Below, one piece after another: positions 34,116 through 34,480 of a stretch of 42,323 nucleotides of DNA (within the stretch, counting starts at the first letter, position 1; every line of letters begins with the position of its first letter). Below the pieces are notes generated by a model. That model worked only from the letters and a program-made list of their open reading frames with translations. It had not been told where the DNA came from and made no database searches. This DNA is from Escherichia coli (GTDB lineage: Bacteria; Pseudomonadota; Gammaproteobacteria; Enterobacterales; Enterobacteriaceae), in the NCBI RefSeq assembly GCF_003334385.1, contig NZ_QOWN01000038.1; one strand, written 5' to 3'. The position numbers and the translations under genes are program-made.

Positions 34116-34480
34116 ACCATAGACAACATGAATATTAATGTTACTATCTGGTTGAGACTGTTGATAAAACGTAAAAAGGAATGCTCTGTTCCTGCAACTG
34201 AACAGGCGTGAAACGCTATCCAACAGGATGGATACCGTTTTGTCAGCCAGTTTTATAGATCACACTTATGAGTATGCGTGTTTCATTTACGGCCAGGAAT
34301 GCTGATGATGACAACATTACTACCCGTTTTCACTAAGCCTTCCCCGTTGGCGCTCAATGCTCTGCGCGCTGGTCGTATTTGCCGTTTCCTTCTTATCCCG
34401 GATGGAAGAATCCGCTGAACGTCGTTCGGCGGCAGTTGTAACACGCGTCGTTTGCTTACAGGGATTATGGCGGGTCGATT

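Follow-up and report, generated by a model that had tools for sequence, protein, structure and literature searches.

The Translated Small Gene yhiY of Escherichia coli as a Candidate Leader ORF of an Attenuator Ahead of yhiI-rbbA-yhhJ

The yhiY Gene and the Leader of the yhiI-rbbA-yhhJ Operon

The short ORF at positions 34305–34418 (+) of the window (the whole stretch of E. coli DNA that was analysed, 42,323 nucleotides) is the already known, annotated, and experimentally validated small gene yhiY (RefSeq; b4790 in K-12), which encodes 37 amino acids and lies ahead of the yhiI-rbbA-yhhJ operon (Table 1). Mapping from a 100%-identical annotated record places the CDS at the same positions on the same strand, and its translation, MMTTLLPVFTKPSPLALNALRAGRICRFLLIPDGRIR, is identical to the annotated protein (WP_001296785.1 / YP_010051203.1). 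In K-12 MG1655, b4790 occupies 3630665–3630778 on the minus strand, with yhiI and yhiJ on either side. The window is K-12-like, with 100% identity across the 365-nt intergenic region. The gene is also ORF9 of Weaver et al. 2019; its coordinates, strand, frame, sequence, and position between yhiJ and yhiI are identical. The first-pass annotation of this region was therefore a correct rediscovery that added no new element.

Table 1. Features of the yhiY–yhiI leader region (window positions).
Feature	Position	Strand	Basis
Sigma-70 promoter TAGACA-16-TACTAT, extended −10, of yhiY-yhiI-rbbA-yhhJ	34120..34147	+	Consensus scan
Additional leader segment of K-12-type strains (103 nt, strongly structured RNA)	34154..34256	+	Inferred 5′ end to mapped 3′ end
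Conserved block 1: 5′ UTR, Shine–Dalgarno, starts, first ~6 yhiY codons	34269..34321	+	Alignment A1
Hypothetical weak hairpin, Shine–Dalgarno in loop, both conserved AUGs in stem	34278..34317	+	RNAalifold, 18 genomes
Sole leader tract with C>G (C/G up to 1.7), candidate rut	34294..34411	+	78-nt sliding C/G counts
Shine–Dalgarno AGGAA of yhiY	34295..34299	+	Seen in sequence; AGGA near-invariant in alignment A1
yhiY CDS, 37 codons + TGA	34305..34418	+	RefSeq mapping, translation, published translation evidence
Hairpin 1 (UUUCC-U-UCU / loop UAUCCC / GGA-U-GGAAG), in yhiY 3′ end	34385..34408	+	RNAalifold, pair counts
Hairpin 2 (CCGCUGAAC-GUC-GUUCGGCGG), yhiY UGA in 5′ arm	34412..34432	+	Single-sequence folds, RNAalifold
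Term-seq 3′ ends 34416 (K-12 3630667) and 34438 (K-12 3630645)	34416..34438	+	Adams et al. supplementary
yhiI, HlyD-family membrane fusion protein, first long operon gene	34481..35548	+	ORF list and RefSeq

Three in-frame ATGs (34299, 34305, and 34308) open the frame, which reads M-L-MMTTLLPVFTKPSPLALNALRAGRICRFLLIPDGRIR from the first of them. An upstream ORF of 37–39 codons had been proposed by the first-pass annotation. The 37-codon version is the RefSeq gene, whereas the 39-codon version from 34299 lacks support; the ORF9 start was assigned to the second of the three AUGs, i.e., 34305 (Weaver et al. 2019). Comparative data agree with this start: the ATG at 34299 is Escherichia-specific, being replaced by ACG or TTG elsewhere, whereas those at 34305 and 34308 are conserved across genera. 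The suggested Shine–Dalgarno sequence is suitably placed ahead of this ATG pair, with AGGA ending 6 nt before 34305; a single genome of alignment A1 has TGGA instead. The frame ends, as was also noted, at the TGA at 34416–34418, and the distance to yhiI, previously given as about 60 nt, is 62 nt.

Translation of yhiY in vivo is established by published work. ORF9 was found by ribosome profiling with Onc112 and retapamulin (Weaver, Mohammad, Buskirk, Storz; bioRxiv 10.1101/511675, later mBio 2019); the initiation-site mapping that had been suggested as a check thus already exists, and initiation peaks are present at yhiY. When candidates were given chromosomal SPA tags, 36 of 38 were seen by western, the failures being ORF24 and ORF56, not yhiY (Weaver et al.). 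Moreover, YhiY was detected by top-down, DIA, and PRM proteomics at approximately 1000–3000 copies per cell (2025 proteomics, PMC12529367). Sequence statistics alone are weak evidence for the ORF. When the 365-nt intergenic region was shuffled 5000 times with its dinucleotides preserved, 47% of the shuffles had a closed ATG ORF of 37 codons or more on the same strand, and 5.4% had one that was accompanied by a motif like the Shine–Dalgarno sequence. The caution of the first-pass annotation was thus warranted, but evidence external to the sequence settles the status of the ORF. That yhiY is an untranslated chance ORF, as its unimpressive statistics taken alone would allow and as the first-pass annotation had considered equally likely, now has practically no probability: it is annotated in RefSeq and K-12, and initiation profiling with two inhibitors, chromosomal tagging, and three mass spectrometry workflows all detect it, so published data have already refuted this explanation.

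The gene is nearly fixed in the species. A megablast search with the intergenic region matched 5,413 of 5,426 complete E. coli genomes, with one chromosomal match each, and the annotation beneath the match reads "yhiY: protein YhiY"; yhiY itself is intact with at least 95% identity in 5412 of the 5426 genomes. Linkage to the yhiI-rbbA-yhhJ operon is constant. In 60 evenly sampled E. coli genomes, yhiY is intact and annotated in 59, the exception being an IS1A insertion. In strain E423 (NZ_CM173464.1, 792–1598), IS1A is inserted in the first yhiY codons, after which a "hypothetical protein" of 35 codons that starts at TTG remains; rbbA of this strain is a pseudogene with an internal stop.

yhiY is co-transcribed with yhiI-rbbA-yhhJ from a single conserved promoter upstream of the uORF (34120–34147). 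The same hexamers have been reported as the constitutive RpoD promoter of yhiI-rbbA-yhhJ (Shimada et al. 2014, PMC3946193), and Citrobacter, Salmonella, and E. albertii retain it as TAGACA-16/17-TAGTAT. The forward primer of a yhiI fusion described as carrying the "entire 5′ UTR" begins at 34154, 7 nt past the −10 element (Adams et al., PMC7815308). In yhiJ-less E. coli (ST131), E. albertii, Citrobacter, Salmonella, and Klebsiella, the promoter (TAGACA, 16–17 nt, TGT-TAGTAT) abuts block 1. K-12-type strains have two promoter copies, one intact (34120–34147) and one degenerate (~34222–34262), with ~95 nt of extra leader between them, and the duplication extends the 5′ UTR from ~47 nt to 151 nt. 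It appears to be associated with a yhiJ-containing insertion. In approximately 1,130 of the 5,413 E. coli genomes, ST131 among them, the match does not begin until ~34249–34263; in these, yhiJ is absent, yhiY adjoins the divergent yhiM (e.g., NZ_OX637959.1, 1–1734), and YhiY carries R21C and R27H.

The extra 103-nt segment (34154–34256) is missing from yhiJ-less E. coli and from the other genera. Its predicted fold is a closed multibranch structure (−36.1 kcal/mol, z = −4.8), and none of 200 shuffles was equally stable; the segment is not represented in Rfam. At its end lies a Term-seq 3′ end (K-12 3630827, window 34256) with 321,364 and 643,233 reads, classified as "orphan" (Adams et al., PMC7815308). 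This end is located 49 nt upstream of the yhiY start and is far more abundant than the 3′ ends at the yhiY stop. The segment may represent a stable RNA derived from the leader or a further attenuator.

The Shine–Dalgarno sequence of yhiI is weak (GGGU, 5 nt spacing). Directly upstream of yhiI, the stretch ACAGGGATTATGGCGGGTCGA (34456–34480) is almost invariant from Escherichia to Salmonella and carries an out-of-frame ATG (34467) after AGGGA; this ATG is probably no start codon, because most Citrobacter and Salmonella diarizonae have ACG in its place. The stretch may resemble a CsrA-type GGA site. The CA-rich yhiY codons 3–6 and the ACAGGGAUUA motif were considered as a possible GcvB or CsrA site, on which no claim is based. 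With respect to base composition, the only tract of the leader in which C exceeds G lies within yhiY and may represent a rut site; in 78-nt windows from 34394 onward, into yhiI, the C/G ratio is 0.4–0.75.

Conservation of the Start Region and of Two RNA Hairpins

yhiI loci were taken from one genome per species, and the DNA upstream of them was compared. Block 1 comprises 53 nt, including ~30 nt of the 5′ UTR, the Shine–Dalgarno sequence, ATGATG, and the first codons, and it hardly varies among Escherichia, Citrobacter, Pseudocitrobacter, Salmonella diarizonae, the Klebsiella oxytoca group, Raoultella, an Enterobacter, and Kluyvera. The yhiY start and block 1 are kept in 22 of 23 genomes of these eight genera. 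An nhmmer profile of the block matches every Enterobacteriaceae yhiI locus, with E values of 1e-16 to 1e-19, and gave no match at the yhiI loci of Hafnia, Proteus, Providencia, and Morganella. Together, the promoter, 5′ UTR, Shine–Dalgarno sequence, starts, and MMTTLL codons are nearly invariant across the eight enterobacterial genera, with synonymous changes at codons 3 and 5 (ACA/ACC and TTA/TTG). Block 1 was also considered as an operator and rejected: at the DNA level it has no inverted repeat, and there is no conserved divergent regulator upstream. On the upstream side, E. coli has yhiJ or yhiM, Citrobacter and Salmonella have a 382-aa ORF, and Klebsiella and Kluyvera carry unrelated genes.

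The conserved peptide is limited to the N-terminal MMTT(L/F)(L/I/V), which coincides with the invariant nucleotide block. Conservation of the frame ends beyond approximately codon 10, and both frame and length vary outside Escherichia. The uORF of Escherichia has 37 codons and stops inside hairpin 2. That of C. amalonaticus, Pseudocitrobacter, and S. diarizonae has 45 codons; the frame is unchanged, 24 nt are inserted, the middle part is unrelated, and the stop is likewise in hairpin 2. The C. freundii group (six genomes) has 46 codons, read in a different frame after a 1-nt deletion. A third frame, giving 45 codons, is used in Escherichia sp. E1V33, a single assembly whose frameshift allele is absent from the complete E. 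coli genomes, where the best match has 91% identity. In the Klebsiella oxytoca group, Raoultella, and Enterobacter sp. 10-1, a uORF of 78–98 codons runs from the conserved ATGATGACC, without the hairpins, and overlaps the yhiI start by 67–131 nt. Most of the leader is deleted in Kluyvera sichuanensis, whose uORF has 3 codons (ATG ACC ACA TGA). The Klebsiella-group and Kluyvera leaders entirely lack the hairpins described below.

Frame conservation across Enterobacteriaceae, which the first-pass annotation had put forward as a test, was thus found for the start and the first ~6 codons, and not for the remaining frame. It had also held that missing initiation signals and frame-disrupting indels in close relatives would speak against the ORF. 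The signal is present; the indels do occur, in the six C. freundii-group genomes and the one E1V33 assembly, and the ORF is still open after them. Since these indels leave the ORF open and the C. freundii-group uORFs end at the same hairpin, the pattern argues for a cis-acting uORF rather than for a lack of function.

Toward the 3′ end of yhiY, nucleotides are conserved regardless of how they are read. TTCCTTCTTATCCCGGATGGAA and the nucleotides of hairpin 2 are kept in Escherichia, in both Citrobacter-containing lineages, and in E1V33, and the TTCCTTCTTATCCCGGATGGAA region is read as FLLIPDG, SFSSRME, or PFPSYPGW depending on the frame (lineage translations FLLIPDGRIR, SFSSRMESPAE, and PFPSYPGWNNSL). 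Within Escherichia, a comparison of six alleles gave pN/pS values of 0.29–0.72 for yhiY versus 0.01–0.04 for yhiI, the underlying substitution counts being small (1–8 per pair). The pS values were 0.03–0.19 for yhiY versus 0.07–0.32 for yhiI, and pN of yhiY was about 10-fold above that of yhiI. Residues 1–13 and 28–34 of YhiY are invariant within the genus. The combination of low synonymous and high non-synonymous divergence indicates constraint on the nucleotides of yhiY more than on its peptide.

RNAalifold predicts both hairpins in 15 Escherichia, Citrobacter, Pseudocitrobacter, and Salmonella genomes, with changes on both sides at three pairs, e.g., GC/GU/AU in hairpin 2. In hairpin 1, 95.8% of cells are paired and one pair changes on both sides; in hairpin 2, 99.2% of cells are paired, with CG/UG/UA variation in addition to GC/GU/AU. 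For the fixed structure as a whole, 97.5% of cells pair, versus 30–57% when the partners are slid by 1–3 columns. The observed covariation score or paired fraction was reached by none of 500 column shuffles, in a set of related genomes. Both hairpins are part of the minimum-energy fold of E. coli and of four of five relatives folded singly; when E. albertii was folded alone, hairpin 2 was recovered and hairpin 1 was not. The yhiY stop lies inside hairpin 2 in 14 of the 15 genomes, in two reading frames and at two positions 4 nt apart. Collectively, these comparisons show a conserved start without a conserved peptide, with the hairpins and the location of the stop within a hairpin kept regardless of frame.

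Other structures were considered. The hypothetical hairpin at 34278–34317 has 12 pairs, all invariant, and seven variable columns, all unpaired; it shows no covariation and hence is neither supported nor refuted. A single-sequence fold suggested a long-range pairing of UUCUUAUCC (34390–34398, in yhiY) with GGAUAAGAG (yhiI codons 2–4). This pairing was rejected because the GGACAAC/GGACAAA changes in C. amalonaticus, Pseudocitrobacter, and Salmonella are uncompensated and because RNAalifold favours the local hairpin 1. A search of Rfam with window positions 34100–34520 on both strands gave no match at E ≤ 1.

Premature Termination and the Proposed Role of yhiY

Two mapped 3′ ends lie at or shortly past the end of yhiY. 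After conversion of the coordinates, 34416 is the first base of the stop codon and 34438 lies 20 nt past the stop; these ends are 8 nt 3′ of hairpin 1 and 6 nt 3′ of hairpin 2, respectively, positions that are consistent with exonucleolytic trimming back to a stable stem. At K-12 3630645, coverage drops from 762 to 101 in the absence of BCM and from 792 to 351 in its presence, and the site, flagged "uORF", has a significant Rho score of 3.34 and an intrinsic-terminator score of 2.14, below the cut-off of 3.0 (Adams et al., PMC7815308). Our own scan found no terminator-like site at 34412–34445 of the window. An intrinsic terminator at hairpin 2 was accordingly rejected as a candidate: it fails in E. 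coli and C. youngae and holds in C. amalonaticus only, where hairpin 2 followed by GGUUUUGUGA scores as terminator-like.

A further Rho-dependent region is present inside yhiI at K-12 3630055 (window ~35028), where coverage falls from 793 to 69 without BCM and from 920 to 410 with BCM (score 5.1, p = 2e-40; PMC7815308). Premature termination therefore reaches well into yhiI, beyond the leader. Furthermore, a lacZ fusion of yhiI (5′ UTR + ORF) is more than 2-fold up in rhoR66S (PMC7815308). Transcripts thus end just 3′ of the hairpins, and read-through increases when Rho is inhibited or mutated. Nine uncharacterised uORFs were reported to be followed by a 3′ end at a distance of less than 200 nt; yhiY-yhiI is one of them and is listed as a candidate for Rho-dependent attenuation under uORF control (Adams et al. 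eLife 2021, PMC7815308). In addition, the yhiY-associated operon is raised by overproduction of CspD, a factor that attenuates termination (PMC9765468). In the literature searched, we found no paper with a yhiY start-codon mutant or any test of peptide function, and no experiment tying yhiY translation to yhiI expression. The Rho-dependent 3′ ends after the ORF and the comparative results give indirect support to the idea of a leader uORF.

From these observations, our preferred explanation, held with only modest confidence, is that yhiY acts mainly as the cis-acting leader ORF of an attenuator that imposes largely Rho-dependent termination ahead of yhiI-rbbA-yhhJ. A ribosome on yhiY would cover the sole C-rich, G-poor, rut-like tract of the leader and, on nearing the stop, would melt both hairpins, the stop itself being within the second. 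If translation were absent or lagged behind RNA polymerase, the tract would be exposed and the hairpins would form. After release of the ribosome, the 62-nt untranslated spacer and the weak ribosome-binding site of yhiI may leave the RNA exposed, so that Rho could terminate near the end of the leader or in early yhiI, and trimming of the terminated products as far as the hairpins would account for the 3′ ends at 34416 and 34438. Attenuation would be the default state, as suggested by the ~7.5-fold drop in coverage, and a signal acting on the initiation or elongation of yhiY would tune it. The YhiY peptide accumulates, but most of its sequence would be an evolutionary by-product.

Several findings weigh against a cis-acting role. 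The covariation consists of three pairs among related genomes only. Part of the coverage drop persists with BCM and a further Rho region lies at 35028, so termination may be independent of yhiY. The absence of the hairpins from the Klebsiella-group and Kluyvera leaders means that any mechanism is not uniform. In addition, YhiY accumulates as a detectable intact protein and is near-fixed in E. coli. This last point leaves some room for a rival reading in which YhiY is chiefly a trans-acting small protein, e.g., an accessory factor or regulator of the YhiI-RbbA-YhhJ exporter, with the 3′ ends and hairpins being ordinary RNA features within the operon, unrelated to its function. Its detection in western and proteomic experiments, its intact presence in 59 of the 60 sampled genomes, the constant linkage to one operon, and the invariance of the N-terminal 13 residues and of residues 28–34 within Escherichia all favour such a protein. 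Yet the frame is not kept outside the genus, where the conserved 3′ nucleotides are read in different frames and the ORF ranges from 3 codons in Kluyvera to 78–98 codons overlapping yhiI in the Klebsiella group. Moreover, pN/pS of yhiY is ~10–20 times that of yhiI, neither E. coli YhiY nor five orthologous uORF products matched an NCBIfam family, and no transmembrane segment is obvious from reading the peptide. We therefore regard a mainly trans-acting role as rather improbable.

Alternatively, yhiY may be translated yet functionless, tolerated in a long leader whose premature termination is independent of its translation. The high pN/pS, the very plastic length and frame, the frequency with which shuffles yield an ORF of such length (47%), and the occurrence of Rho-dependent termination deep in yhiI agree with this possibility, but it does not readily explain why the Shine–Dalgarno sequence, the starts, and the first codons are nearly invariant in eight genera, synonymous changes at codons 3 and 5 included, why the stop is kept in hairpin 2 across two frames, or why the ORF is open after each frame change. 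We consider it unlikely.

The cis-acting attenuator can also be stated in a stronger form, which we put forward only tentatively and with some doubt: yhiY would be the sensor of a conserved enterobacterial attenuator and functionally not a protein gene. The invariant block would control or monitor the initiation or early elongation of the uORF, and the stop within the hairpin would convert the arrival of a ribosome into read-through of the Rho-dependent block. Block 1 might then be folded, with its AUGs sequestered, and the signal could be, for example, a translation stress that concerns RbbA, a ribosome-associated ATPase.

The new elements here, which we regard as modestly useful, are the cross-genus pattern of conservation, the frame-independent hairpins, the stop in hairpin 2, and the rut-like tract in the ORF. 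The comparative result turns the published uORF suggestion into a specific, testable model and is a caution against treating YhiY as a conserved functional peptide. Because neither a regulator nor an inducing signal is known for the yhiI-rbbA-yhhJ exporter, a defined attenuator would offer a handle for finding one.

Comparison with Known Leader ORFs

The geometry of yhiY is closest to that of the tnaC and pyrBI/pyrE leaders. In pyrBI (pyrL) and pyrE, a leader ORF of ~40 codons runs into the attenuator hairpin, and the trailing ribosome blocks this hairpin. Control depends on the coupling of ribosome and polymerase, not on the peptide, and these leaders use intrinsic terminators with a strong U-tract and UTP-sensitive pausing. 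Coupling-based control fits the frame-independent conservation at yhiY. However, hairpin 2 of E. coli has no U-tract and its termination is largely Rho-dependent, a terminator-like tail being found only in C. amalonaticus. With respect to the trp/his/pyrBI class in general, a G+C-rich terminator hairpin with a U-tract was not found in the window, and neither a regulatory run among the 37 yhiY codons nor a conserved alternative structure was detected.

In tnaC-tnaAB, a ribosome held at the stop of the leader ORF masks an adjacent Rho entry site, and TnaC needs specific conserved residues and free tryptophan. Where the stop codon lies with respect to RNA features further downstream matters in that leader, as it would in yhiY. 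The two differ in that the candidate rut tract of yhiY lies within the ORF instead of following it, a hairpin holds the stop, and neither stalling nor a ligand is known for yhiY.

Among the Rho-dependent uORF attenuators (mdtU, tnaC, and toiL), the translated uORF in the 5′ leader is a property that yhiY shares; premature termination after the uORF has been published for yhiY, and cis-dependence on uORF translation is predicted. mdtU-mdtJI differs from yhiY in two respects: a start-codon mutant and the spermidine signal have been studied for mdtU, whereas yhiY-yhiI is listed next to it as a candidate (PMC7815308), and MdtU keeps its C-terminus in at least 17 genera (PMC7815308), whereas only the N-terminus of yhiY is conserved and its C-terminal frame changes by lineage. 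Nevertheless, in both cases a translated small uORF in the leader of an exporter operon is followed shortly afterward by a Rho-dependent 3′ end (PMC7815308), and mdtU-mdtJI is the closest functional likeness of yhiY.
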